From: a virus
Virus record (IMG/VR): IMGVR_UViG_3300045988_152201
Length of the DNA stretch: 39,912 bases
Strand: one strand, 5' to 3'
In this document: piece after piece, positions 15,360 to 29,034 of the stretch
How positions within the stretch are numbered: the stretch's first letter is position 1
How the letters are laid out: each line of letters opens with the position of its first letter
Made by a program: the position numbers and the translations under genes
Notes under the pieces: model-generated
The model's input: only the letters and a program-made list of their open reading frames with translations
Databases searched by the model: none
Told to the model about the DNA's origin: nothing

Positions 15360-15848
15360 TTATTTCATGATTTTGTATCTCCTTAACCCGTAATAGATGG
15401 CAACGGACACGGCCACGGCAAGCAGCCCGATAGCCTTGCCCCCGTAGTTTATTTTAACCTGCTGCCATTTGGTAAGCTGTTTTTCTACCGGGACAGGGAC
15501 TTCAACATCTCTATCGACATATATTTCCCTTGACGGGAGATATAAGGTGTCTTTCTTTATCCTCATGTCAGCAATCACATGCCCCAAGCTGTCGAGTTTG
15601 AATTGCAAATCCACATTCCGGCTGTTCGCCATGTCAAGCCACCGCAATACGACTTTGCCCCTCTCATCGCATTCCACCAACGCCCTTATTGTCGCACTGT
15701 CGGCAGGTACAGGGTATGGAACAAGACGGTCTATGTAGACTGAATCGTGCCTGCTCTCGACTGGCACGTATTTTATATGCGTGCGGCAACCGGACAGGCA
15801 CAAGGCTAACGATATTGTAATACAAAACAGCCTCATAACAGATTCCAC
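15360..15848 (-). CDS. Lipoprotein with a C-terminal transmembrane anchor (unimolecular-spanin-like)
   Basis: 162 aa. It has a lipobox LALCLSGC near the N-terminus and a C-terminal TM segment AIGLLAVAVSVAIYYGL. It overlaps the end of the endolysin gene. Confidence 0.5.
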   Translation of the reverse strand: MESVMRLFCITISLALCLSGCRTHIKYVPVESRHDSVYIDRLVPYPVPADSATIRALVECDERGKVVLRWLDMANSRNVDLQFKLDSLGHVIADMRIKKDTLYLPSREIYVDRDVEVPVPVEKQLTKWQQVKINYGGKAIGLLAVAVSVAIYYGLRRYKIMK

Positions 15849-16237
15849 CCTTTGATAACGTCAGTCATTACCGCCTCGACCCCGTTCTCGACCTTGCTCA
15901 TGCCTGCGACAATCCTTATCATCTGCTCACGGTCGTTGATGTTTATCGGGTCGTCCGGCTTGATCCCGGCATAACCCGATACGGCATCGATGTAAGCTGC
16001 CGTATTGTTCTCCTTTTCCGGGGCCCAGCGTGTGATCATCTTGCGGATTGTGTACAGTGCGTACTTGGTGTGATAGTTGCGCAATATCTTAAAAATAGCC
16101 CGGTAGCCGTATGCGGGCGTCTCAAACTGTTTAAAAGACTTGTCCGTGCTTGGTCTTATTTCGCCCCTGAACAGGTCCCCGTTGATACGTATGTTCCCCG
16201 GATTGTTGTTCCTTAATCCTCTTGCTTTTTTCTTCAT
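15833..16237 (-). CDS. Putative endolysin / peptidoglycan hydrolase (RNNNPGNIR-motif family)
   Basis: 134 aa. The N-terminal GLRNNNPGNIR motif occurs in small phage lysins that are often labelled 'structural protein P5'. It is flanked by membrane proteins. Confidence 0.5.
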   Translation of the reverse strand: MKKKARGLRNNNPGNIRINGDLFRGEIRPSTDKSFKQFETPAYGYRAIFKILRNYHTKYALYTIRKMITRWAPEKENNTAAYIDAVSGYAGIKPDDPININDREQMIRIVAGMSKVENGVEAVMTDVIKGWNLL

Positions 16238-16289
16238 GATAAAATCCTCTATTGGTTTGATTAATAACTCGATTATGATTAATTAAATA

Positions 16290-16679
16290 CTAAAACTCGC
16301 TCGGCGGCTCCCGGTCCGGGCATCCGTGCTTGTTGCATTTGCGGAACTCTAATGCGCTGTTCTTGATCACAAGCTCCGTGTTCTGCTTTGTCAACGCCCT
16401 TACCCTTGTACGATATTCGTCCATTTGTGCATACAGCGAGTCTATCTTTGCATCAAGCTGTTCTACACGTATCTCCTTCTTCTCGTACAGCTCTTTCCAC
16501 TCTGCCGCATATTGCGTTATGGTGTCAGCCTCTGCTTTTTTAGCCTCAGCCTCCGCCTTGCGCTTGTTATACTCCCTGTACCCCCAATATCCAGCAAGGG
16601 GTATTATTACGGCTGTCACGATGCCTCCTGCGACATCAGACAGCATGCTAAGCGTAGCCAATAATCCTTCTTCCATCAT
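16290..16679 (-). CDS. Membrane-anchored coiled-coil protein (holin- or spanin-like)
   Basis: 129 aa with an N-terminal TM segment GGIVTAVIIPLAGYWGY followed by a charged coiled coil. It lies immediately upstream of the endolysin. Confidence 0.4.
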   Translation of the reverse strand: MMEEGLLATLSMLSDVAGGIVTAVIIPLAGYWGYREYNKRKAEAEAKKAEADTITQYAAEWKELYEKKEIRVEQLDAKIDSLYAQMDEYRTRVRALTKQNTELVIKNSALEFRKCNKHGCPDREPPSEF

Positions 16680-16688
16680 CGTGGTGAT

Positions 16689-16925
16689 TTATATGATTAA
16701 CGCCTCCGCTTCCGACTCCTCCTGTTCCTCCCTCAGTGCGCATATCTCCTGCTCAAGCCTGTTGATCGTCTCCCTCGCCTCCTTGCGCAGCCTCTTGGTC
16801 TCAGCGTCCATCGCCTCGCCACCGTCAAGCTCACGCAGCAGCTTATAGTCCATGCCGTTAAGCAGGTTTCTCGCCTCGATGATCCTCTTCTCCCGTCCGT
16901 TGATTTCCAGTTCCAAATCTTTCAT
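16689..16925 (-). CDS. Small coiled-coil protein
   Basis: 78 aa and highly charged. It has an ATGA overlap with the RT stop. Confidence 0.5.
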   Translation of the reverse strand: MKDLELEINGREKRIIEARNLLNGMDYKLLRELDGGEAMDAETKRLRKEARETINRLEQEICALREEQEESEAEALII

Positions 16926-18103
16926 GCATAAATCCTCCTAAATTTATAGTCAATAAAATCGTTATGTTTATACCCGTCCTTCGCCACAACGCACAGCCTG
17001 TCCCAGTCCATGTCCACGTAAGCTTTCCATCCTCCGCCTACCATGTCCCAAAGCCGCTCGATGTTGCGGAACTCGTTCTTGTTTTTCAGCAAGCCCAAAT
17101 ACGAGTTAATCGTGCTGACGAACTGATCCAGCTTGCCAAGCTTGCCCTTGCAGGTGTTTAGCTCCCCGATTCTCGCCTTCGCCTTGCGAAGCGTTCGACC
17201 CGCTATGTAAACCCTGTCACCTTTGATGTAACACCCAAGGAATTTAACGCCTTTTGCCACCTCCTGACAGCTGAATTTTCTCGGGTGCATCGTTGAGCCG
17301 ACAGCCCTATACCTCTCACGGAAGAGAGGCAACAAGGCCAACGCAGCCTCTTTGTTCTCAACTATCAATGCAGTATCGTCCATGAACCTTGTATAAAATA
17401 GCCCCATATCGTCAACCGCCCAATGGTCTATGTCGCTGTAATACAGGTTCATCGTCACCTGCCATATCAGGAAGCCTATTACGCCTCCAATCCCATAGTC
17501 CTTGTCTAATATGCTTTTCCCGGGCTTGATTAATCCCCATTCCTCGATCGAGCTCTTGCGATAAAAGTGATATTGCGGATTTGCATGTATTGCAATCATA
17601 GACATCCATAACAAATCCTCCTTGTCCTCGCCTTCGTACCGCTCGATAAGCCTCCTCAATATGCCGTAAGCAATGCCGCAGTCGGCATTAGGGAAGCATC
17701 CCTGCAAGTCCCATTGGATTGCGTATGCCGCCCGGGTAAAGTTGCAGCTGACCGTCCGTATGTCATCTATCACGTTGTTGACCGCAGCTTCGACGCCCAT
17801 GCCGATGCGGTTGTTGAAGGTGCGCCCGGAAAGCTCACGCTCGAATATGTCCGACATCCTCCATACAACGTACCATTGTATCATGCGGCTCTCGAACTCG
17901 CTTCCGAACACCTCCCTGGGCTGCGGATATTTTGAAATAAAGGCATAGTTATGGTCGCATCGCATGGTGCGCTCGTTGATCATGGAAAGCAGCTTGTCCA
18001 GCTTCGCTTCGTAATCAAGCTCGAAGAGCACGGCGTCCTCGCTCCTGCGCTTGTTCGCACGGGCAAGCCAATATACAGTATATAAATCCTCTATCCTTAC
18101 CAT
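16922..18103 (-). CDS. DGR reverse transcriptase
   Basis: The ORF-track frame is 16922..18232. The likely start is the ATG at 18103 (MVRIEDLY…), preceded by AGGGAG and just past the TR. It carries RT motifs including IGFLIWQ (the DGR-type [ILV]GxxxSQ with W replacing S) and catalytic RFMDD. Confidence 0.9.
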   Translation of the reverse strand: MVRIEDLYTVYWLARANKRRSEDAVLFELDYEAKLDKLLSMINERTMRCDHNYAFISKYPQPREVFGSEFESRMIQWYVVWRMSDIFERELSGRTFNNRIGMGVEAAVNNVIDDIRTVSCNFTRAAYAIQWDLQGCFPNADCGIAYGILRRLIERYEGEDKEDLLWMSMIAIHANPQYHFYRKSSIEEWGLIKPGKSILDKDYGIGGVIGFLIWQVTMNLYYSDIDHWAVDDMGLFYTRFMDDTALIVENKEAALALLPLFRERYRAVGSTMHPRKFSCQEVAKGVKFLGCYIKGDRVYIAGRTLRKAKARIGELNTCKGKLGKLDQFVSTINSYLGLLKNKNEFRNIERLWDMVGGGWKAYVDMDWDRLCVVAKDGYKHNDFIDYKFRRIYA

Positions 18104-18124
18104 AATCTCCCTGTCATACAAATT

Positions 18125-18250
18125 CGGGCCACAGCCGCCACCGCAAAGCGATAGTTGAAGCTGTTGTTGTCGCATACCCCGTAGCCGTTCGAGTACCAAG
18201 CGTAGCAGGCGCTGGAACGGCTGCATGACCAACGATTAGCGGTGCCGCTG
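18125..18250 (-). repeat. DGR template repeat (TR)
   Basis: The 126-bp TR is 112/126 identical to 18789..18914 at a constant offset of 664. It lies between avd and the RT start. The 94-aa ORF spanning it is not considered coding. Confidence 0.85.
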
Positions 18251-18350
18251 TATGGGTGTCCTTGCTGTCGTAGCCATAAATGATGGCAGACACTCCTTTT
18301 ATATTTCCGGACGTGGTCGCACCTCTGGTGTGCGACTCTTGCCGAGCGGA

Positions 18351-18722
18351 TTATTCCGATATCACCATGCTGTTGCGCCATTTTTCTATGCCTTCATGTA
18401 GTTTTACTGTCAATTCCTTTATCTCATTCACAAGTCCGGGCACTTTAAGCATCTTCGCTTCTCCGTCCACTACCATGCGTATCTCCACTTTTAGGGCTTC
18501 GAAATGGGCTGACATAGCGTCAACATACCTACGCTTATCGACAAGTCTGTCTTCACGGTATGCCAATGCAAAGTTTGATATGATAGCCTCAGTGTGATCC
18601 AACATGCGGGTTACTAAAACAGGACGATCCCGCTTCGGTATTTCAAATTGTGCTTTATAAATCGTCCTTAGCAAGTTTTGAGCATCCACGTAGATGCCTG
18701 ATTTGTCTATTTTCCGTGCCAT
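18351..18722 (-). CDS. avd: DGR accessory variability determinant (Avd), four-helix-bundle protein
   Basis: 123 aa from the second Met (MARKIDKSGIYVDAQNLL…); the track frame extends to 18755. It is basic and helical, resembling 23S-rRNA-IVS/Avd family proteins, and sits between VR and TR. Confidence 0.75.
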   Translation of the reverse strand: MARKIDKSGIYVDAQNLLRTIYKAQFEIPKRDRPVLVTRMLDHTEAIISNFALAYREDRLVDKRRYVDAMSAHFEALKVEIRMVVDGEAKMLKVPGLVNEIKELTVKLHEGIEKWRNSMVISE

Positions 18723-18737
18723 TTTTTTGGTGATAAT

Positions 18738-18761
18738 GCGCCCGTGACGTAGCACGGACGC
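18738..18761 (-). promoter_or_regulatory. GC-rich hairpin downstream of VR (DGR target-site structure candidate)
   Basis: On the minus strand, GCGTCCGTG-ctacgt-CACGGGCGC forms 9 bp with one G:T. It begins 12 nt after the target-gene stop codon. Confidence 0.5.
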
Positions 18762-18772
18762 AATGTTAATAT

Positions 18773-19945
18773 TTAATCGAGTTTAAAGCGGGCCACAGCC
18801 GACACCGCAAAGCGATAGTTGAAGCTGTTGCGGTCGCATACCCCGTAGCCGCCCGAGCACCAAGCGTCGTTGGCGTAGGAACGGCCGCATGACCAACGAT
18901 GAGCGGTGCTGCTGATTTGACTCCAACCCTTTCGCACCCCGAGGGCTATATTAACAGGGTCGATCGGCTGCTTTGTGTCCTTTGTGATGTCTCTCATTAA
19001 TCGCCCTAATTCGCTAAATCCAGCCTGATGGAACGTTCCCGGGCCATATCCGTCTACTCCACAGTCATACTGATTAGCCCACACCGCACCAGGATAAGCA
19101 TATGTTTCCACGCCTCTTATCAGTAGCTTTTTTGACAGTAGCCTGTCTGCCAGCTCCTTACCATCCCTGTATCGCATAATGCCGACTCCCCTGTCCGGCT
19201 CTGCGGCTCTCACCATGCAAGCATCGAGATAATCCTCATATGTCGAAAAGTGCGCCCTTAAACCGTCCCCAAAATCCCCGTCATAGTATGCTCGAGAGCA
19301 AGGATAAGTAATAAATAGCCTCGTCTCGCCATCCATCCTTGATTCGGGATTGTTATTTTTATCAGTACTCTTTTCAGCCCATTCACCAAGCCTTGCTCTG
19401 CATATCCCGTTATAAATAGCTTTTTGCAATATCTGATTGCGTGTAGTGGATACCGTGCTGTCTGCCAACTCCTCGCCTACACGCTTGCGCAGCTTGCAGC
19501 CAGCTACCGAACAGGCACTCTCATAAAGCGTGTAATCAGACAGTTGCAAAACGGCTGTCTCCCCGTCCATGTACGCCTCCCATTTCGGTGCATTTACCGA
19601 TAACCACGTGTTCAGCTGCGACACAAACTCATCCTTTGTCCCGTCCGATTTTGTGTAGCTAAAGTTGCCGACAACCTTATCATGCAACCTGACCTCGCAC
19701 TCAGCCGATTCGGCAGGGATTGCCTCAATCTCGTAATCTGCCGCCTCCGACCACCTAAACGTCTTATCATTAACTCCTGCTACAACATCATACAGCTTGC
19801 CGAACACGTCATACACAACGCCAACAGCCTGTAATGCGTCAGCCTCTTCATTTGTCACGTCCGCTCCACTGACAAACATTTTACTTCCGTCCTTGATAAA
19901 AAATATGTCACCCACCTTCGGGTATCGTCTAATCTTGTCGCCCAT
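18773..19945 (-). CDS. DGR target protein (C-type-lectin/DUF1566-like variable C-terminus), probable receptor-binding accessory protein
   Basis: 390 aa. The C-terminus AHRWSCGRSYANDAWCSGGYGVCDRNSFNYRFAVSAVARF is encoded by the VR. It lies directly downstream of the tail-fibre genes. Confidence 0.85.
   Translation of the reverse strand: MGDKIRRYPKVGDIFFIKDGSKMFVSGADVTNEEADALQAVGVVYDVFGKLYDVVAGVNDKTFRWSEAADYEIEAIPAESAECEVRLHDKVVGNFSYTKSDGTKDEFVSQLNTWLSVNAPKWEAYMDGETAVLQLSDYTLYESACSVAGCKLRKRVGEELADSTVSTTRNQILQKAIYNGICRARLGEWAEKSTDKNNNPESRMDGETRLFITYPCSRAYYDGDFGDGLRAHFSTYEDYLDACMVRAAEPDRGVGIMRYRDGKELADRLLSKKLLIRGVETYAYPGAVWANQYDCGVDGYGPGTFHQAGFSELGRLMRDITKDTKQPIDPVNIALGVRKGWSQISSTAHRWSCGRSYANDAWCSGGYGVCDRNSFNYRFAVSAVARFKLD
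18789..18914 (-). repeat. DGR variable repeat (VR)
   Basis: It matches the TR with 14 mismatches. Eight fall at TR coding-strand adenines (TR plus-strand T at 18167, 18168, 18188, 18189, 18194, 18213, 18222, 18237). Confidence 0.85.
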
Positions 19946-19952
19946 AATAAAA

Positions 19953-20858
19953 TCAATTTAATACAACCCAGTCGCTTACACTATTTGCCCCAAATGCCAT
20001 GTAAACCTTTCTTTTAGCTAAATCCATATATATCTGCCCTGCGAAATCCGGTGCTACCGATGGGGCGTCTACCGCAAATACCGTGATTGGCAGACCGCAT
20101 ATTGTCGGCCATTCCTGCGTGTCCATACTGATTGCTTCCATCCTTCCTGCCCTGTCTCTCGCCTCTATCAAACGTTCGATATCCCCTGCGTTTTGCGTTG
20201 CCTTTTCGGTCACTCCGTCAAGCTGCGCTTGTCTTTTCCCCTCCGCTTCGACCCTCGCTTGCTCCGCTTTTTCCCTTTCCGCTTCCGCTGCAATGCGCTG
20301 CTGCTCCGCTTCGACCCGCAAGGTTTCATTGCTCGCACGGTCAACCTCTGATGACACTCGTTCCTTTTCCGTTTCCGTCCTTGCCGCCTCTGCCGCTGCC
20401 CTCCCCGACTCTGCTTGCACCCTTGCCGCCTCGGCTTCGTTGCGCTGCTGCTCCGCTGTTGTACGCTCAGCCTCGCCTTGCAAAATCTCTTTGTACAGCT
20501 TGTTGACCTCTTCGAGGTTGGCTCGTGCCGCCTCCGCTGCATTATTTGCAGCTTCCGTAGCTCGTACCAGCTCGTCAAATTGCTGTTGCTTCTGCGTTAA
20601 AAACTCCTCCTCCGTGCCTTCAAACCTGCCAGTCCTGACACACATCTCATACCAGCTGTCTCCTCGCTTAGCCAGCAGCATCCAAGTGCCTTCGAGACTG
20701 TCGGTTGATGGATCAATGCCTACGTTGTCTTTCAGTGCCATGTAGCTTTGCCCGTCCTTTGCTACGATATCGAGCACATGATACTGCGTGCTTGCGTTGT
20801 AGGTCTTTCTGCCGACAACCGCCACCTTGCCTAATACTACCTCTTTTGTTACCATCAT
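19953..20858 (-). CDS. Tail fibre-like protein with a long A/E/R-rich coiled coil
   Basis: 301 aa. It has a globular N-terminus, a central stretch of EAER/AEAAR-type heptads, and a C-terminal globular domain. It lies within the fibre gene block. Confidence 0.55.
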   Translation of the reverse strand: MMVTKEVVLGKVAVVGRKTYNASTQYHVLDIVAKDGQSYMALKDNVGIDPSTDSLEGTWMLLAKRGDSWYEMCVRTGRFEGTEEEFLTQKQQQFDELVRATEAANNAAEAARANLEEVNKLYKEILQGEAERTTAEQQRNEAEAARVQAESGRAAAEAARTETEKERVSSEVDRASNETLRVEAEQQRIAAEAEREKAEQARVEAEGKRQAQLDGVTEKATQNAGDIERLIEARDRAGRMEAISMDTQEWPTICGLPITVFAVDAPSVAPDFAGQIYMDLAKRKVYMAFGANSVSDWVVLN

Positions 20859-21463: not shown

Positions 21464-22492
21464 TTACTCATACATGATAAGGTAATTTACCTCTGCTTTA
21501 ACTATATAATTGACATATAGTACAAGTTTGCCACTTGATGGCAAATTCTCGTTAGCATGTTCTTTGGTAAACGTCCACTCTTGATACGGTCCAAGAGAGC
21601 CTGTATCAAATTTATCAATGTAATAAACAGTATTTCCGAATGTGTCTGCCACATGGACAACGCATTGATTGATAATTTCATTACTTCCTGTTACATTCTT
21701 GATTCTAACTGTATATGTCAATACTCCGTTTGCATATACTCCTTGTACATGCCCTTCAACCGTAGAAGACTTGATTGACATAGGACGAATGTCCCCCATC
21801 GGCAAAGCGTAGAATTTTGTCGGGCCTTCGGCGGAAGAATTAAAACTTGGTTTTCTACGCTGAGATATGAATGTAAAAACCTGTGCAGTACCTGTAGTAA
21901 ATACTGTATCAGTATAGCCAGCAACTGGAGCAGTAACTGACATATTACCTGCTGTGCTATTTGTCATCCAATACACTGTAGACCCTCTCACTATAGCCAA
22001 TCCAAAATACCATTCCGTATCTAATCCGTCAAATATGTCTGTCGGAGGAATTTCATAATCTTCATAATTGCCATTTTTATATATCGCTGTTACGGTCATA
22101 CTGGTAGCAGACTGATATATTATTCCGGGAATCGGGGAGTCCCTAAGCACTGGTAAAGCCGCCGGATTATATCCTGCGAAATCACCGAGGCGATAATTAT
22201 TTGCTGGTTTATTATGGAAATATTGCTTTTCTCCGTTCTTTAATGAATTATATAAATCATTGGGAGAACTGTGCTGTTTTATTGAAATGCCGCAATCCAG
22301 CAGCGCACCCTTCCACCAGTCGGTCGGGCGGTCTGTAAAATGATGGATGACTGGCTTATATTTGCTCCAAATGTTTATCCTGTCGGAGGTGCACAGCTTG
22401 GATAGCCGTGTCTCCAGCTTACCGTTGACCACTTCGCCTATAGTGCAAGCCACATGATATAATTGTCGTATATTCGTCTTAGGTATGTTCAT
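21464..22492 (-). CDS. Hypothetical tail-fibre-region protein (AT-richer cassette)
   Basis: 342-aa ORF with a 4-nt overlap onto the upstream fibre gene. Its composition is visibly more AT-rich than its neighbours. Confidence 0.55.
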   Translation of the reverse strand: MNIPKTNIRQLYHVACTIGEVVNGKLETRLSKLCTSDRINIWSKYKPVIHHFTDRPTDWWKGALLDCGISIKQHSSPNDLYNSLKNGEKQYFHNKPANNYRLGDFAGYNPAALPVLRDSPIPGIIYQSATSMTVTAIYKNGNYEDYEIPPTDIFDGLDTEWYFGLAIVRGSTVYWMTNSTAGNMSVTAPVAGYTDTVFTTGTAQVFTFISQRRKPSFNSSAEGPTKFYALPMGDIRPMSIKSSTVEGHVQGVYANGVLTYTVRIKNVTGSNEIINQCVVHVADTFGNTVYYIDKFDTGSLGPYQEWTFTKEHANENLPSSGKLVLYVNYIVKAEVNYLIMYE

Positions 22493-24438
22493 ACCGCACC
22501 TCCTTTCATCCTCTCGACCTCCTGCATCAGCAAGGCGAGTTTTGATTGCAAATCGTCAATAGTTTGTTGCTGCTCTTTATATTTTGCGTATAGCTCTTTA
22601 CAGCCTCCGATTGCCACGACAGCCCCGAGGGTAGCGTAATCGACAGTATAATATTGTTCATTGTTTGTATCATCAACGAAATCCCTTACAGCAATCGTAG
22701 GGAAAGTTTTCGCAACCTCTTGCGCTATGACACCAACCCGCAAAATTTTATTTTCGTCATCAACTCTTGTATATTCATATACATTTATACACTGTATTTT
22801 ACCTAAAATATCCTCTTTCCTTTCAAATATGGTTTTGAGTCTTTTGTCTGAAAGTGACCCTGTGCCGTTTTTAGTTAATATCTTACCGTTTCCACCCGAA
22901 TTTATTGTTGCAACTTGCGTTCCTTTATTGTCTCCATTCCCGATATAGATTTCAGCATTGGAGCTCTGGCAAGTATAATTTAGCCACAATCGTTGATTGT
23001 AACTGCTTGGGGAATACGTAGATATATCATTTCCATAAATGCGACATTGAGTTGAGTTTGAAGCCTTTGCCATGATAGGGTTCGTCACAGTTCCACCGTT
23101 CCACGAGCCGCTTCCTCCACCGCTACCCGGGTCGCCTTTCGGTCCTTTCAAATCCACATAAGACCCCCAGCTAACATTTCCGCTGCTATTAATCGTACCA
23201 AGTCTTAGCTGAGTTCCGCTCCACTGATAAGTGACTCCTTGCCCTTTCGCCCCGGTCGCCCCCGGGTCACCTTTCGGTCCCTTGATATTGACGGACGAGG
23301 GGGTTGATTCGCTCTCGCTGAGCGTCCATGACAATAATCCGCTTGTATTGACGGACGGTCTCCAATACTTAACGACTCCGGTGCTTCCGCCTCCTTGCAC
23401 GGTGCAATAGAGCTGCCCGCTGCTGTTTTTTTTGATTGTCAAATTGTCGTACTTGACAAGACCGTAAGTCGTATTGTCCGCAACAGGGACGACGCTTGTA
23501 AATGATGTCGTAGTACTATTCGCCACGACATCGCCCGGAGCTGTAAAGTTTTTGCCTGTAAATTTAAAATCGTTCGATGCTGTGTTGTTCGTGCGGATTA
23601 GATAATCACCACTGCAAATAATAGTAGTAGAGCCGTAATCAGTCCAATCCGAGCTTGTTGTATACCCCTTATTTACATGTAGTTTAGCATACGTATTACC
23701 AAAGATGCTGATATAAGGGTTCATTTCCCCGTTGATATTAGCCCCGATATTGATTTTATAAGTATCAGTGCTAAAAGGTCTTTTCAGGGTCATCAACAGG
23801 GGACCGCTCATATCGTCTCCTGTCTTTTTGACGTAGCCGCTTAAATCATTAACTGTCAAAAAGCTCGGCAGCGTCTTTTCCACACTGCCGTCATATTCGC
23901 CGCCGCTCCACGACAATTTATAGGGGTTTTTGCGGGCATCCGACAACCGTGTGTCATTGCCCTGGCAAGCCGTGCCGGCTATCGTGCCGTACTTGACGCT
24001 AAGCTCATTATCGACCGACATTTGCAGCCCTTCGCCGACCGTAAAGTTGACTCCGCCCCCGGCAAAATCGGGGTTGACGTACCACCCGTTAGTTGCCGTG
24101 TCATAAAGCAGCCCGCCGCCCTGTTTGGCCCTGAACAACCCGGTGGTCGTGTAGTCGGATGCGACAGGCAAGCTGTTTATATCGTCCTCCGTTGCGTTTG
24201 CCGTGACATCCCCGGGCACGACAATATGCTTGCCCTGCACAGGTCTCAGGTAATACCCTGCCTCCTCCAAAGCGTTGCCGTTTGCGTCAACGGTCACCAA
24301 CTCCCAATATTGAGGTGCGCTGTCGGCGGCATATACAGCCCCTCCGGTTGCCGCTGCGGCTTGTATGCCGTCCGTCAACCGCTGATTGCGAGGTGTCGCT
24401 GCCACCTTTTTAACCTGGTAATTGTACGTTTTACTCAT
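22489..24438 (-). CDS. Tail fibre protein with collagen-like triplets and a C-terminal intramolecular chaperone (peptidase S74-like) domain
   Basis: 649 aa. It has two KGPKGDPG(A/S)xG segments. The C-terminus SDKRLKTIFERKEDILGKIQCINVYEYTR…VGVIAQEVAKTFP matches the S74 chaperone pattern. Confidence 0.75.
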   Translation of the reverse strand: MSKTYNYQVKKVAATPRNQRLTDGIQAAAATGGAVYAADSAPQYWELVTVDANGNALEEAGYYLRPVQGKHIVVPGDVTANATEDDINSLPVASDYTTTGLFRAKQGGGLLYDTATNGWYVNPDFAGGGVNFTVGEGLQMSVDNELSVKYGTIAGTACQGNDTRLSDARKNPYKLSWSGGEYDGSVEKTLPSFLTVNDLSGYVKKTGDDMSGPLLMTLKRPFSTDTYKINIGANINGEMNPYISIFGNTYAKLHVNKGYTTSSDWTDYGSTTIICSGDYLIRTNNTASNDFKFTGKNFTAPGDVVANSTTTSFTSVVPVADNTTYGLVKYDNLTIKKNSSGQLYCTVQGGGSTGVVKYWRPSVNTSGLLSWTLSESESTPSSVNIKGPKGDPGATGAKGQGVTYQWSGTQLRLGTINSSGNVSWGSYVDLKGPKGDPGSGGGSGSWNGGTVTNPIMAKASNSTQCRIYGNDISTYSPSSYNQRLWLNYTCQSSNAEIYIGNGDNKGTQVATINSGGNGKILTKNGTGSLSDKRLKTIFERKEDILGKIQCINVYEYTRVDDENKILRVGVIAQEVAKTFPTIAVRDFVDDTNNEQYYTVDYATLGAVVAIGGCKELYAKYKEQQQTIDDLQSKLALLMQEVERMKGGAV

Positions 24439-26521
24439 ATTTGACTGCTGTATAATTGTCGTTTAATACTTGCACCATCACAATGCTGTCCGTGTCGTTG
24501 CGCAAGTCCTGCGACTCCGCCAAAACAATATAGTTGCCCGGCTCGTTTTTGTCCGTATAGATGCCAAAGTCGGTCAATATATCCACCTCCCCGCCCAGCT
24601 TTTTAAGCGGCTCGGCATATTGGCTATAGATAGTGCCTATCATCAACCTCTCCAACGTGTCCGTGTTGCCAGCCCGCCAAAACGAGTTGCAGGCTGAAAA
24701 GTCGGATGTCTTAAACAACTGTCCCAACGCTGCCGGGGACGGACTGTCCATGCAACCCAATTTTGTATCTATTTTAAGACCCTCCTTTGCATCACGGTTA
24801 AGCCACGCTTTTGTCTCTATATCCTGTGCGGAGATGGACGAGCCTGTATGCTGCACAACGTCGATTGCGGCGTCTTTGTAGAGCAGCCACCGGCATTGCG
24901 AGTAAACCGACTCTTTTACCTCCTTGCCATAGTCGTATGCCACCACGCCCGTGCCTATCTGCAGCTCCAGATAACCGCCCACAGGGGGCAGGCTGATAAG
25001 CTCCCCGTTGCCCAGTTTGTCAAAGATGGTGGGCAAGTTTCCCCGATAGTAGCCGATTGACTGCTTGTTTACCTGCCATCCTCCAATGCCCGACTCGTTT
25101 TTGCGGTTGCCCTGGTACCAGCAAAGCCACGCATCGCCCCACGATGCCTCCCCCGTCCGCCACAAAGCCAAAGAGCCGGGGCGTGCAAAGCTGCTGCTGT
25201 TTTTAACCCCTTTGTTGTCATAGTGGTACAGGGCTACGCCGCTGTCGTTCCGCACCGTCAATTTAAAAGGCACGTAGACAAAATTAGCCCGGTTCTGCTG
25301 GTCTTTCCAATTGCCCTCCTCATTGGTGGTCGAGCTCTCCTCGAAGGGGTTGTATCGGGGGTCAAAAAGCATGGACAAGGACAACTTGAGTTTGTATTTG
25401 TCCGATGCAGGCACGCTTGACAGGTAAGGCCTTTTTATTGACGTCAATAAAATGCCACCTATGTTGTAAGTAGGCTCTTTGATGTAGTTGACATACACGC
25501 CGGAGTTGCGGCTTGCAAAGGTCTCCGCCGTCCATGCCACTCCTGCCTCCTTGCTCCCCGAGTAAACAGGCTCGATTTTAAAATATTTGGCGTCTGCGTG
25601 CTTGTCCACCCCTTTGCCCGTGTCGGAGAGGTGCGTGTAAAAACCTATCTCGTCCGCTTCCGCCGCCGTGCTGAACCATGTTGTCAGCTTTTGGCCGCCG
25701 CCCACGCTGTCCGCATCGACGTCAGCCTTTAAAATGTCCGTTTTTTCGTAGGGCGAAAAGGTTACTTTGACGTCATTATACACCTTATCGACCGACAAGA
25801 CCGCATCATCCGAGCTCCAATTAACCGCTGTCGCTGTCTTGTTTTTAAGCAGCGTGTCCGTATCGTACAGGTAGATATTGCCACCTTTTTGCACTAAATG
25901 CAGGGCAAAAGGGCGCAGGGTCTCATCCAAGACCTTGCGCAAGCTCATCGCATCGCCGTCCTCGTCGTAAAAGTTTTGGCTTTGCACCGCTATCGCATCT
26001 ATCAGCGTCTCGCTGCTCGTGCCGAATAGCTTTGTGCCTATGTAGTAAAATATGCCGTTATGCCGGATGCAGGACGACTCGACCAGATGCGCAAACAGCT
26101 GCCGCAGCGTCCTGAACCCGCCCAAAGTGTAATTGAGGCGGTCTAAAATGGCAAAGTCCGCAAACGACAACGACACGACATAGCCGTCCTTGTAAGCAAA
26201 CGGCTCCTCGTACAATTCGGGATCCAGCGTGCCCGACCAATACAGCGACCCGCTGCGGTACACGTCCATCCGCACGCTGCCCGCCTTGATGGTATAAAGG
26301 TCTACAAACTGCCTGTCCGAGTCGCTAAAGAGCTGCAACTTTGCACTGCTGCTCATGACCGGCTCCAACTTGTCCACCTCTTGCCACTCGATCGTGACCG
26401 GGGACTCGCCAAAAGCGACATTGGCAGCCGCACCGCCGTAACCCTCCTGCCAAATCTCGACCCTGTAAAGGGTGTTGGCGACAGAGTAAAACCCGCCTAT
26501 GTATCGTTTGCCCATGCTCAT
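24431..26521 (-). CDS. Distal tail / baseplate protein
   Basis: 696 aa, immediately downstream of the tape measure gene with overlapping junctions. Confidence 0.6.
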   Translation of the reverse strand: MSMGKRYIGGFYSVANTLYRVEIWQEGYGGAAANVAFGESPVTIEWQEVDKLEPVMSSSAKLQLFSDSDRQFVDLYTIKAGSVRMDVYRSGSLYWSGTLDPELYEEPFAYKDGYVVSLSFADFAILDRLNYTLGGFRTLRQLFAHLVESSCIRHNGIFYYIGTKLFGTSSETLIDAIAVQSQNFYDEDGDAMSLRKVLDETLRPFALHLVQKGGNIYLYDTDTLLKNKTATAVNWSSDDAVLSVDKVYNDVKVTFSPYEKTDILKADVDADSVGGGQKLTTWFSTAAEADEIGFYTHLSDTGKGVDKHADAKYFKIEPVYSGSKEAGVAWTAETFASRNSGVYVNYIKEPTYNIGGILLTSIKRPYLSSVPASDKYKLKLSLSMLFDPRYNPFEESSTTNEEGNWKDQQNRANFVYVPFKLTVRNDSGVALYHYDNKGVKNSSSFARPGSLALWRTGEASWGDAWLCWYQGNRKNESGIGGWQVNKQSIGYYRGNLPTIFDKLGNGELISLPPVGGYLELQIGTGVVAYDYGKEVKESVYSQCRWLLYKDAAIDVVQHTGSSISAQDIETKAWLNRDAKEGLKIDTKLGCMDSPSPAALGQLFKTSDFSACNSFWRAGNTDTLERLMIGTIYSQYAEPLKKLGGEVDILTDFGIYTDKNEPGNYIVLAESQDLRNDTDSIVMVQVLNDNYTAVKYE

Positions 26522-29034
26522 CGTGTCCGTCTCCTCCTATTGTTTACCTTTTTTAAAATGCCCTCCAGCACATCGCCCCGGATTTCAAACCGCACCTCGC
26601 CGACACCGCCGTCAGCCCTGTCCGTGTCAATCAGGGAGCGTAATTTATCCAAAGGTGCGATTACCTCCGGGTTGCTGGATGCCCCGCCATACTCGCCCAC
26701 GAGTGCCAAGGTCGGACCGCTCACGATGCCGCCCTCCGCAAAGGCTGTCGCCCGGCTCAAAGCCGCCTTTGCTGCCGCCGTTGCAGCCACCAATGCGCCT
26801 CCGGCCACGATTGCGCCCACTCCCGACCATGCGACTGCCTTTAATGCTTCTGATGCTGCTCCGGCTGCTATCAATGCAGATCCGAATTGTTGCAGCATGT
26901 CCATGACGGTTATCAACATCCTTTTCAGCATCTCCAAAGGGCTGCCGGATGCTATCGCCTCGCCCAATCCGGAAAAAGCGGAAGTGACAAGGCCGTTGAT
27001 TTGCTCCTCCGAAAAGACAACCATCTCCTCGATCGAGTCGGAAAACTGTTGCCGCATTTTCATAAGGTTCTCTTTTATTTTGTTCTCACTGACCTCAAAA
27101 TTTATAGGTATGTCAAGCGATGGTGGAGCATCCACGCCTCTTGTTTGAGGTGTCTTTAACTCCTCTTTATATTTTGTATCGCCTAAATGTCCTGACGCTC
27201 CTACAGCAATCGACCGCTGTAGGAGGTTTAACCTCTCTTTGTATAATGCTATCTCTTTTTCAAGGTTGATGGCTTGCGACAAAGATGCCTTTTCTTGCGC
27301 ATCGCTCAGCTCTTTAATTTTTTGTTTAAGACCCCCTATCGTGTCAAGGCTTGCCCCTTTGTTGTCCGTCAAAACATCTTGAGAACCTTTTAGTGCATCT
27401 TGCAAATTGCCAAACGCAGAAGCGGCTTCCGCTGTCTCGCCCGCCGTCTCCTCCATCTCCGACCCAAATCCAAAAAACTTTTTGACCGCGTCCCATGCCT
27501 TGCCTATCCAACTTGCCAAACCTTTAAAGCCCTCTACCCAGCTATCGATAAGACGCCTAAACCGCTCACAATGTTTGTAAGCCATCACCAATGCTGCCAC
27601 CAAAGTGGTGATACCGGCTATTACAATCCCGACCGGGTTTGCCATTAATGCGATGTTTAACACCTTTTGTGCTGCCGCTGCCGCATAGGTTGCTACCTTT
27701 TGCAGGGTCAACGCCTTTGTAAATGCAAGCACCCTGCCCGGCAAGGTGGCGAATATGCCGACCATAAACTGAGCCGTCAACGAGTAAGCTTTAGCAGCCA
27801 CCAATGCGCCTTGCATGGCAGCCACGGAGGCTTTTGCGGCAGCCGTCAGTTTGACAAACGCAATGACAATCCCGCCGCCTACGATTTTTGCAGTAGTAGC
27901 TATTGCGCCTTTAAATAAAAAAAGTAAAGGTAAACTTTGTGAGATCATCACAGCCGTCTCCCCAACCGCAGACGCATAACCAAAAAGCCCCCCGGATATA
28001 TTTAAAAGGGTTATTTTAAAATCGTCTATATTTGCCTGTATGCGCTTAGTCTGCTCCGCTAATGTATTTGTGCGTATAGCCGCCTGCTCTTGTGCGACGC
28101 TTGTACCCGTTACCGCCATGGTCATCTCTTCCACCGCTTTTGCGTTTGTGATAAGGTATTGTGCCGCCGCTATGTTTTCAGATCCAAACACCTTTGCAAG
28201 ATAGGTCACGTCTTTTAATTTAGGCTTCAGCGAATCAAGCGCATCCGCCAGCCCTACTTTCGACAGATCCATACCTAAAGTGGTCTGTAATTTTAAAATC
28301 ACGTTTCTTAAAGCCGTTCCCGCTTCCGATCCTTTTACATTACTTTGCGACAACACCTCCAACGCTCCTGCCGTCTGCTCCACCGACAGTCCTGCCGCTG
28401 CCGCCGTCGCACCCGTTACCTTAAAGGATTGTGCCAAATCTGTAACTTCCGCCGCTCCATACTTGGATCCAGCCGCCAGCACGTTGACCACCCTGTTTGC
28501 ATGGGTTGCCTCCAGCCCGAATTGGTTGATGGTTGCCGCCATTGCCGTCGCAGCATCGGAAAGGGTCATCCCGCCTGCCTGGGCTAATGTGATCGTCTCT
28601 TTTTGCAGTTGTATCAAGCCCTTTAATCCTATTTTGTCTATCTGTATTTGAGACGCCAACAAAGTAAACGCATCAACAGCGCCTTTTGCTCCTAATCCGG
28701 ATTCCTTTCCTACCCTCCTTGCGGTCTTGGATATTGTTTCAAGGTCTTTCCCCACGATGCCGGTAATCGCTTGCAAATCTGCCATTCCCTGCTCAAACTC
28801 AACTCCGGCTGCGCTTATTTTTTCTAAGGATTCAGCCGTATCTTTAACATTGGAAACAATCGTGCTGAATTTTATGTTTTTAAGCTCGTTGCAGATATTT
28901 GTCAATTTTTGGAACTGCCCCCCGGCTTCCTTGACAGAACGTGTCACACCATCCATCTCTTGTTTAATAATCTTTAACTGCGGAAGCAATCCTGATTTAG
29001 TGTCTAATTTTATTGTATATCTGAGATTATTCAT
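26518..29034 (-). CDS. Tail tape measure protein
   Basis: 838 aa and the largest ORF. It is A/G-rich and helical with hydrophobic central segments, and lies downstream of the G/GT chaperone pair. Confidence 0.85.
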   Translation of the reverse strand: MNNLRYTIKLDTKSGLLPQLKIIKQEMDGVTRSVKEAGGQFQKLTNICNELKNIKFSTIVSNVKDTAESLEKISAAGVEFEQGMADLQAITGIVGKDLETISKTARRVGKESGLGAKGAVDAFTLLASQIQIDKIGLKGLIQLQKETITLAQAGGMTLSDAATAMAATINQFGLEATHANRVVNVLAAGSKYGAAEVTDLAQSFKVTGATAAAAGLSVEQTAGALEVLSQSNVKGSEAGTALRNVILKLQTTLGMDLSKVGLADALDSLKPKLKDVTYLAKVFGSENIAAAQYLITNAKAVEEMTMAVTGTSVAQEQAAIRTNTLAEQTKRIQANIDDFKITLLNISGGLFGYASAVGETAVMISQSLPLLFLFKGAIATTAKIVGGGIVIAFVKLTAAAKASVAAMQGALVAAKAYSLTAQFMVGIFATLPGRVLAFTKALTLQKVATYAAAAAQKVLNIALMANPVGIVIAGITTLVAALVMAYKHCERFRRLIDSWVEGFKGLASWIGKAWDAVKKFFGFGSEMEETAGETAEAASAFGNLQDALKGSQDVLTDNKGASLDTIGGLKQKIKELSDAQEKASLSQAINLEKEIALYKERLNLLQRSIAVGASGHLGDTKYKEELKTPQTRGVDAPPSLDIPINFEVSENKIKENLMKMRQQFSDSIEEMVVFSEEQINGLVTSAFSGLGEAIASGSPLEMLKRMLITVMDMLQQFGSALIAAGAASEALKAVAWSGVGAIVAGGALVAATAAAKAALSRATAFAEGGIVSGPTLALVGEYGGASSNPEVIAPLDKLRSLIDTDRADGGVGEVRFEIRGDVLEGILKKVNNRRRRTR

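Follow-up and report, generated by a model that had tools for sequence, protein, structure and literature searches.

Adenine loss in the template repeat of a diversity-generating retroelement from a Bacteroidales gut phage

Why should only eight of the 14 differences between the two repeats of a diversity-generating retroelement (DGR) lie at adenines? The question is raised by IMGVR_UViG_3300045988_152201, an IMG/VR virus record of 39,912 nt (this whole stretch of DNA is referred to as the window), in which a sequence-only reading had recognized a DGR with a 126-nt template repeat (TR; 18125..18250) and a matching variable repeat (VR; 18789..18914), both on the minus strand. Repeat search and alignment recovered the same pair as the longest repeat in the region, identical at 112 of 126 positions and sharing no exact stretch longer than 28 nt. 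On the coding strand, eight mismatches are at TR-A, four at TR-G and two at TR-T, and all 14 occupy codon positions 1 or 2 of the 390-aa target frame. Given that A accounts for 22 of the 126 TR bases, eight adenine sites are an excess (binomial p = 9.5e-4), and the codon pairs that the reading had quoted from TR to VR (AAT>CAT, AAC>GGC and AAC-AAC>CGC-AAC) are correct.

By homology with the DGR of Bordetella phage BPP-1, a TR-containing transcript would be reverse-transcribed by the element's reverse transcriptase (RT), probably together with an Avd-like protein, and bases would be misincorporated at random where the template has adenine. The resulting cDNA would then replace the VR in the 3′ part of the target gene (390 aa), guided by a shared GC-rich 3′ block, the VR-specific flank and a GC hairpin, and up to ~21 codons would be diversified in the DUF1566/C-type-lectin-like tip of a putative receptor-binding protein. 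The element is a complete, canonical DGR of a temperate, siphovirus-like Bacteroidales gut phage and as such of a known kind; taken as a plain DGR, it contributes little beyond a further gut-phage example. The useful part is its eroded template.

Adenine changes confined to the template repeat

Contigs of the same phage lineage were gathered from many samples by exact-protein look-ups with the RT, Avd-like and target proteins of the window and from the members of the target's 90% cluster, and a JGI scan supplied two further ones. Fifteen contigs carry one identical 126-nt TR with 33 adenines, combined with nine different VR alleles, and 101 of their 107 mismatches lie at adenines. The sequence-only reading had proposed to look for a polymorphic VR opposite an invariant TR, and across these lineage contigs the expectation was borne out. 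The VR alleles of the relatives differ from the TR by 6–16 changes, with 0–2 of them at bases other than A. Judged by its sequences, the lineage is a textbook picture of an active DGR. In the following, the A-rich, 33-adenine TR common to the 15 contigs is termed the ancestral TR, and repeat positions are numbered 1–126.

The window copy does not share this invariance. Its TR differs from the ancestral TR at 14 positions (minus strand; 18246, 18226, 18215, 18212, 18210, 18207, 18206, 18204, 18186, 18183, 18177, 18161, 18153 and 18138), 12 of which are ancestral adenines (binomial p = 5e-6); the other two changes are T24A and T112G. At the adenine sites, the new base is G (seven cases), T (four) or C (one), and the derived bases comprise 4G, 35C, 38G, 40G, 43T, 44G, 46T, 67T, 73G, 89G, 97T and 112G, while repeat position 64 may represent an older polymorphism. 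This leaves the window TR with 22 adenines against 33 in the ancestral TR, the lowest count among all loci examined. In L002, a more distant relative, 11 of the 12 changed adenine sites still hold A, and the A-rich state of the TR is therefore the ancestral one.

A comparison with Hadza contig L081 locates the change. Window and contig do not differ anywhere in the fibre-like gene (906 nt), the target outside the VR (1031 nt), the Avd-like gene (372 nt), the gap between Avd and TR (100 nt), the gap between TR and RT (21 nt) or the RT gene (1182 nt), compared with 14 differences in the TR and 21 in the VR (126 nt each). Set against the 0 differences in 3,612 nt of the remaining cassette, the TR stands out with a Fisher p of 1.4e-20. 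The hairpin, flanks and proteins of the window (the RT protein at 100% identity) are the same as in relatives with intact TRs. Window and relatives form a clean natural comparison, in which RT, Avd, flanks and hairpin are identical and an intact template can be held against an eroded one.

These figures bear directly on ordinary decay, i.e. an inactive DGR whose TR and VR drift by random point mutation. Non-adenine mismatches are commonly read as a sign of decay, and within the lineage a deletion in one contig (L093) has removed half the TR and most of the RT. Yet drift would have to place 14 substitutions in the 126-nt TR and none in the rest of the cassette and, within the TR, 12 of the 14 at adenines, transversions included, all of this beside RT and Avd proteins identical to those of relatives with the canonical pattern. 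We therefore regard decay as an extremely improbable explanation. On balance, it is the template of the window itself that seems to have been adenine-mutagenised.

Read against the ancestral TR, the count of eight adenine sites among 14, while correct, understates the signal and hides the real anomaly. Thirteen of the mismatches lie at ancestral adenines, eight of them changed on the VR side, four on the TR side and one on both. The six non-adenine mismatches are explained, except for T112G, because five of these positions were adenines in the ancestral TR. The window VR, in turn, differs from the ancestral TR at 17 positions; 16 are adenines and the 17th is T24A, which is also found in the window TR. 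Neither repeat is derivable from the other, because each retains adenines that the other has lost. Direct descent of either repeat from the present form of the other was rejected, as it would in each case require non-A-to-A changes.

Smaller TR variants of the same kind occur elsewhere in the lineage. Three of five changes are at adenines in the variant of L079/L108, which comes from two samples, as are four of six in L094 and the single change in L001/L009. All of these TR changes have been copied into the VRs of the respective contigs. Pooling the window with these other lineage variants, 20 of 26 TR changes fall at adenines (p = 1e-7).

Two further observations were made on the lineage. L093 (Logan ERR10140848) carries a 910-bp deletion, with one end in mid-TR and the other inside the RT gene, that is equivalent to window positions 17278..18187; what is left of the RT is a remnant of 108 aa, and the target is fused to the upstream gene in an open reading frame (ORF) of 466 aa. 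This is plainly a dead DGR within the same phage lineage. In addition, recurrent substitutions were seen in the VRs of L001, L009, L081, L089, L092, L095 and the window, mostly AAC/AAT>TAC/TAT (Tyr) at positions 37, 43, 46, 67 and 97, which points to selection for tyrosines or a biased misincorporation spectrum.

Routes by which the template may have been rewritten

Which process could remove adenines from a template while sparing everything around it? We infer that the TR received mutagenised cDNA by mistaken integration (self-homing), on at least one occasion and probably on two, and consider this the probable course of events, if by no means an assured one. The VR has evidently escaped rewriting since the last TR change, as the persistence of five internal non-adenine mismatches shows. 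The steps can be reconstructed with an intermediate, TR1, defined as having A wherever either repeat has A, that is, the ancestral TR with 24A, 35C, 40G, 64G, 67T, 73G, 89G and 97T. The ancestral TR would first have been converted to TR1 by seven A>N changes plus T24A; TR1 would then have given rise to the VR by nine further A>N changes; and, in a third step, TR1 would have become the present TR by five more A>N changes plus T112G. Each of these steps has the size and error load of ordinary homing in the relatives, with ~1 non-adenine error per TR-rewriting step. At eight co-mutated sites, TR and VR carry seven identical substitutions (p ~0.003–0.035, depending on base bias), as expected if both descend from TR1.

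An engineered counterpart of such an event is known from BPP-1. In 2004, Doulatov et al. reportedly placed the initiation of mutagenic homing sequence (IMH) at the TR and thereby obtained TR self-mutagenesis, with adenine-specific substitutions in the template. Unlike this construct, the window case would be natural, and no change there has made the TR flank VR-like or added a hairpin. As to the broader proposition, namely that DGR templates are not always invariant in nature and that an element's own adenine-mutagenic cDNA occasionally homes into the TR, with heritable, stepwise loss of adenines, we find the case for and against evenly poised.

Several points weigh against self-homing in the window. 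The TR1 intermediate was not found. Nor was a cis cause for the TR becoming a target, as flanks and hairpin are identical to those of relatives. T112G, the only change outside the mutable part, makes the TR less VR-like. The eroded TR occurs only in assemblies that probably stem from one sample, namely the window, ENA ERZ28623069 / SAMN03418258 and Logan SRR1929574. The assignment of the accessory protein to Avd rests on weak hidden Markov model (HMM) matches. The papers searched contain no report of natural TR self-homing, TR mutation or template erosion, and the sole related item in the literature is a theoretical preprint on adenine loss (see below). Finally, a similar pattern would result if a sibling genome had donated a selected VR allele to the TR.

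With respect to occurrence, a window-specific 28-mer of the TR had no match in IMG/VR, and a search with the TR–RT junction returned no hit in GTDB genomes, two in JGI metagenomes and one in IMG/VR. Two other causes were considered and discarded: mis-targeting owing to a mutated VR hairpin or flank, since both are identical to those of relatives, and recombinational import of a foreign TR, since the flanks are identical up to the repeat and the changes are adenine-specific.

The last of the points against self-homing amounts to VR-to-TR gene conversion, in which a sibling or co-infecting genome would have supplied a diversified and perhaps selected VR allele that replaced the TR without any cDNA acting at the TR. 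The mutational load of the window TR (12 A>N changes and one non-adenine change) resembles that of a typical VR allele, and its substitutions 43T, 46T, 67T, 97T and 64G recur in the VRs of relatives. Exchange between lineages is hinted at by L095 (an ERZ1034687 contig), whose VR has A at repeat position 24 where its own TR has T; as 24A is the state of both window repeats, this suggests an exchange of VR or TR segments between phage sub-lineages. The present VR, however, is no donor: it has kept A at four sites at which the TR is non-A, the differences between the repeats are interleaved, and a second, unseen allele would be needed. Perfectly identical TR/VR stretches are short, with 28 nt as the longest, and the identity of seven out of eight shared substitutions would need convergent selection. 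We thus consider gene conversion unlikely, albeit the most serious of the competing accounts.

Rewriting could also be illusory. If the true TR were A-rich, de Bruijn graph paths might have placed polymorphic VR reads between TR flanks during assembly, a scenario favored by the ~90% identity of TR and VR, by the polymorphism of VR populations and by the fact that all assemblies with the eroded TR probably go back to one read set. A simple chimera is excluded, given that the ancestral TR and the assembled VR both lack the TR bases 4G, 38G, 43T, 44G, 46T and 112G. The TR-specific 5′ flank is 4 nt away from position 4, and the TR-specific 3′ flank is 28 nt away from position 97 and 13 nt away from position 112; k-mers linking these bases to the TR flanks must therefore exist in the reads, as deduced from the sequence. 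Moreover, TR and VR share no exact stretch beyond those 28 nt, the window and the two public assemblies agree exactly, and inheritance across two samples is seen for smaller TR variants with an adenine bias (L079/L109 and Hadza contig L108). An assembly artefact accordingly appears quite improbable.

Self-homing, if it is the cause, would have consequences for the element. The window TR retains 22 template adenines in 15 variable codons, enough for ~8e11 peptides, compared with 21 codons and ~1e19 peptides for the ancestral TR. With its proteins intact, the window copy is probably still able to work, with a repertoire that is narrowed and partly frozen, and the next homing event is predicted to impose fixed TR bases on the VR at four codons (Ser>Gly, Tyr>Ser, Asn>Cys and Asp>Tyr). 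Either part of the variable protein would have been frozen around a recent solution, or decay of the DGR would have begun. The theoretical preprint mentioned above (2026; bioRxiv 10.64898/2026.02.18.706561) predicts that, under stable conditions, slow spontaneous mutation of the TR leaves each position with either A or the base to which the protein is adapted at the time. In line with this idea, seven window TR sites now hold the exact base of the VR. In contrast to it, the window has lost 12 adenines with no other substitution in 3.6 kb, and a fast, adenine-targeted process is needed.

Should read data confirm the eroded template, the one-way flow of information from TR to VR would be seen to leak in nature, and there would be a concrete and fast route to template adenine loss, narrowing or ageing the repertoire of a DGR. 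Non-adenine TR/VR mismatches, which surveys usually assign to RT sloppiness or drift, would gain a specific cause, and self-homing, if true, would account for some of the unexplained non-adenine mismatches in ~23% of catalogued DGRs. Confirmation would also imply that finders requiring a high adenine fraction or a literal GxxxSQ motif under-call such elements as well as the RT clade to which this one belongs.

The reverse transcriptase and its W/F motif clade

The RT gene (16922..18103, minus strand; 393 aa from its ATG) encodes the motifs YTRFMDD and IGFLIWQ at the coordinates given in the sequence-only reading. Its family membership, for which that reading had asked, is supported by matches to RVT_1 (E = 1e-10) and phrog_1423 (E = 1.3e-40), while NCBIfam yielded only a far sub-threshold match to a group II intron RT. 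The sole PDB match at E ≤ 0.01 is the RT of BPP-1 (bRT; 8ub7, E = 1.8e-9), in which IGSLTSQ is aligned to IGFLIWQ.

By diagnostic convention, DGR RTs carry the motif [ILV]GxxxSQ (PMC3575424, PMC7826257). The window RT keeps I, G and Q and replaces S by W, and does not match the literal motif. This departure had been flagged as a deviation of the element; it is present, but not peculiar to it, since 77 of 92 homologues have W and seven F. At the position equivalent to bRT Ser186, W or F thus occurs in 84 of these 92 homologues (P0001–P0092, down to ~35% identity), and S in the most distant ones only. Finders that require [ILV]GxxxSQ (PMC3575424) would miss this WQ/FQ clade.

Could the S>W exchange have relaxed the specificity of the enzyme, such that it also mutates G and T and the six non-adenine mismatches of the window are normal homing products? 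Apart from the departure from the motif, the notion is helped by Wu et al., who considered atypical RT incorporation as one source of non-adenine differences (PMC5758913). We collected 59 related TR/VR loci from IMG/VR and other sources, with an alignment query for the IMG/VR relatives, as a single-protein scan gave one relative only. In these loci, 1033 of 1082 mismatches (95.5%) are at TR adenines, and the remainder lie mostly at the extreme 3′ end, where the IMH and its TR counterpart (IMH*) differ. The exchange of S for W/F therefore leaves specificity intact; function is evidently retained, and the departure from the literal motif does not count against a DGR. Two lineage contigs whose RT proteins are 100% identical to that of the window, L079 and L081, have 11 of 11 and 11 of 12 mismatches at A, respectively, and all non-adenine mismatches of the window bar T112G are at ancestral adenines. 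Relaxed specificity is thus a highly unlikely explanation. W/F marks a large clade of Bacteroidales-phage RTs with unaltered adenine specificity. L069, which belongs to another sub-clade, lacks a single TR adenine that its VR has kept.

Anatomy of the element and its place in the phage genome

All parts named in the sequence-only reading, i.e. target with VR, hairpin, Avd-like gene, TR and RT, were recovered in canonical order on the minus strand, and the ORF boundaries of target and Avd-like gene are as it had given them. A second VR was not found in the window, where the 3′ repeat block occurs just twice (0 expected). The target gene (18773..19945, minus strand, from the ORF list) encodes 390 aa, with the VR supplying roughly the last 42 codons before the final five (codons ~345–386). 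At the 3′ end of the VR, a GC-rich block (18789..18816, minus strand, identified in the alignments) is equivalent to the (GC)14/IMH of BPP-1; it equals the 3′ end of the ancestral TR and is free of adenine mismatches.

A GC-rich hairpin after the target stop had also been noted and is real. By folding, it spans 18737..18762 (minus strand), with a 10-bp stem including one G·T pair and a 6-nt loop, starts ~10 nt past the TAA stop at 18773..18775, and has a DNA folding free energy (dG) of -10.2 kcal/mol (z = -2.98); it is the candidate target-recognition stem-loop. In 35 of 35 clade loci, the VR is followed by a similar hairpin, although the sequences differ (dG -8.9 to -17.2), and in each of these loci the sequence after the TR folds less stably than that after the VR (dG -1.5 to -9.8). 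The element thus has a GC-rich 3′ block (IMH region) and an inverted repeat that lies downstream of the VR and not of the TR, sequence features whose role in homing is assigned by analogy. In BPP-1, it is the IMH, (GC)14 and the stem-loop that determine directionality (PMC3240598, PMC5703328). Because TR and VR ancestrally end in the same 28 nt, discrimination between the repeats must rest on the downstream flank and the hairpin. DGRs with identical IMH and IMH* were noted by Wu et al. (PMC5758913), and the same situation is met in this lineage. TR changes at repeat positions 106 (L079) and 110 (L094) are also found in the respective VRs, from which it follows that information transfer extends to at least position 110.

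The Avd-like gene (18351..18722, minus strand; 123 aa from its ATG) matches phrog_3206, 'Avd protein of DGR', at E = 5.5e-6 and Pfam bAvd at E = 0.0045, which is below the family cut-off. bAvd is matched by five of 23 clade orthologues (best E = 3.4e-5), and a profile of these 23 orthologues retrieved just a chance syntaxin match from the PDB. From position, size and weak HMM matches, the gene is a probable avd. Between its stop and the TR, folding revealed a second small hairpin with a 7-bp stem (18316..18336, minus strand; dG -7.5 kcal/mol, z = -2.07), which is identical in close relatives and may act as a terminator or belong to the template RNA. On its other side, the TR (located by repeat search and through the TRs of relatives) ends 21 nt before the RT start codon (18104..18124), a distance of 11–77 nt across the clade; a spacer RNA for RT recruitment and cDNA priming, if there is one, must therefore extend into the RT coding sequence.

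The sequence-only reading had suggested a C-type-lectin fold for the C-terminus of the target, and here the outcome was mixed. The target has 179 homologues and no Pfam domain, and neither it nor the Avd-like protein gave a meaningful phmmer match in the PDB. The full-length AlphaFold model is confident (predicted local distance difference test score, pLDDT, 94.1), and Foldseek returned a DUF1566 protein as the top match in BFVD (E = 1.4e-7), with a root-mean-square deviation of 3.8 Å over 131 columns to a crAss-like DUF1566 protein. A match to the C-terminal domain of Legionella Lcl (PDB 8q4e; probability 0.92) has a weak E of 0.05, Pfam at E ≤ 10 found no DUF1566 in the C-terminus, and the C-terminal 211 residues modelled alone are of low confidence (pLDDT 57). 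The relation to DUF1566 by fold thus stands, without backing from Pfam and with a weak Lcl match, and the modelled tip of the target is likely C-type-lectin-like. The exact target protein is deposited in GenBank as DAQ52857.1, a hypothetical protein of a third-party annotation (TPA) record, 'Caudoviricetes sp.'; this phage record had no megablast match in the phage collection searched. The 90% cluster of the target has 85 members, which differ mostly in the VR.

The architecture is reminiscent of the BPP-1 DGR (mtd-avd-TR-brt). In both, target with VR, hairpin, accessory gene, TR and RT follow one another in this order, and a VR of comparable length occupies the 3′ end of a gene associated with the tail. 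Both templates are rich in AAC/AAT, the mismatches are adenine-specific and affect the first and second codon positions, and it is only at the VR that the GC-rich 3′ block is followed by a stem-loop. They differ in that RT identity is low (IGxLIWQ in the window vs. IGxLTSQ in bRT), that BPP-1 has a spacer of ~140 nt where the window TR ends so close to the RT start, that TR and VR of the window lineage ancestrally share their final 28 nt, and that the window template is not invariant. Between the target and Mtd of BPP-1, no sequence similarity was detectable. Other temperate phages and prophages of gut Bacteroidales, among them Hankyphage (PMC6199706) and those in a survey of Bacteroides DGRs (bioRxiv 10.1101/2024.11.15.621889), use DGRs to diversify proteins of the C-type-lectin-like kind. 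Identity with Hankyphage was rejected, as the window encodes a tyrosine integrase and not a Mu-like transposase, and its target has 390 aa and not >2,200 aa.

The window is equivalent to a nearly complete temperate siphovirus-like genome with terminase, portal, major head protein, tape measure, tail fibre, tyrosine integrase and lysis module. PHROG matches of neighbouring ORFs agree with the proposed position of the DGR between tail-fibre and lysis modules. Downstream of the RT, the lysis module (15360..16679, minus strand) consists of a holin-like gene (16290..16679; holin-like PHROG match), an endolysin-like gene (15833..16237; phrog_873 endolysin, E = 2.4e-47) and a lipoprotein gene (15360..15848; lipobox visible in the ORF translation), all on the minus strand. 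The upstream context comprises tail-fibre (22489..24438) and tape measure (26518..29034) genes assigned by PHROG. RT relatives were located in metagenome-assembled genomes of Parabacteroides, Bacteroides and other Bacteroidales, and one close relative is integrated beside SusC/FecR-type genes. A megablast search of the cassette against 50,697 phage records gave no match, and Rfam and tRNA scans of the window were empty.

Immediately upstream of the target lies a gene for a fibre-like coiled-coil protein (19953..20858, minus strand), with weak PHROG matches to tail-fibre and virion-structural proteins. It contains an internal direct repeat of 78 nt (20233..20310 and 20380..20457), whose copies are 72% identical, lie 147 nt apart and sit in the alanine/glutamate-rich coiled-coil part of the protein.

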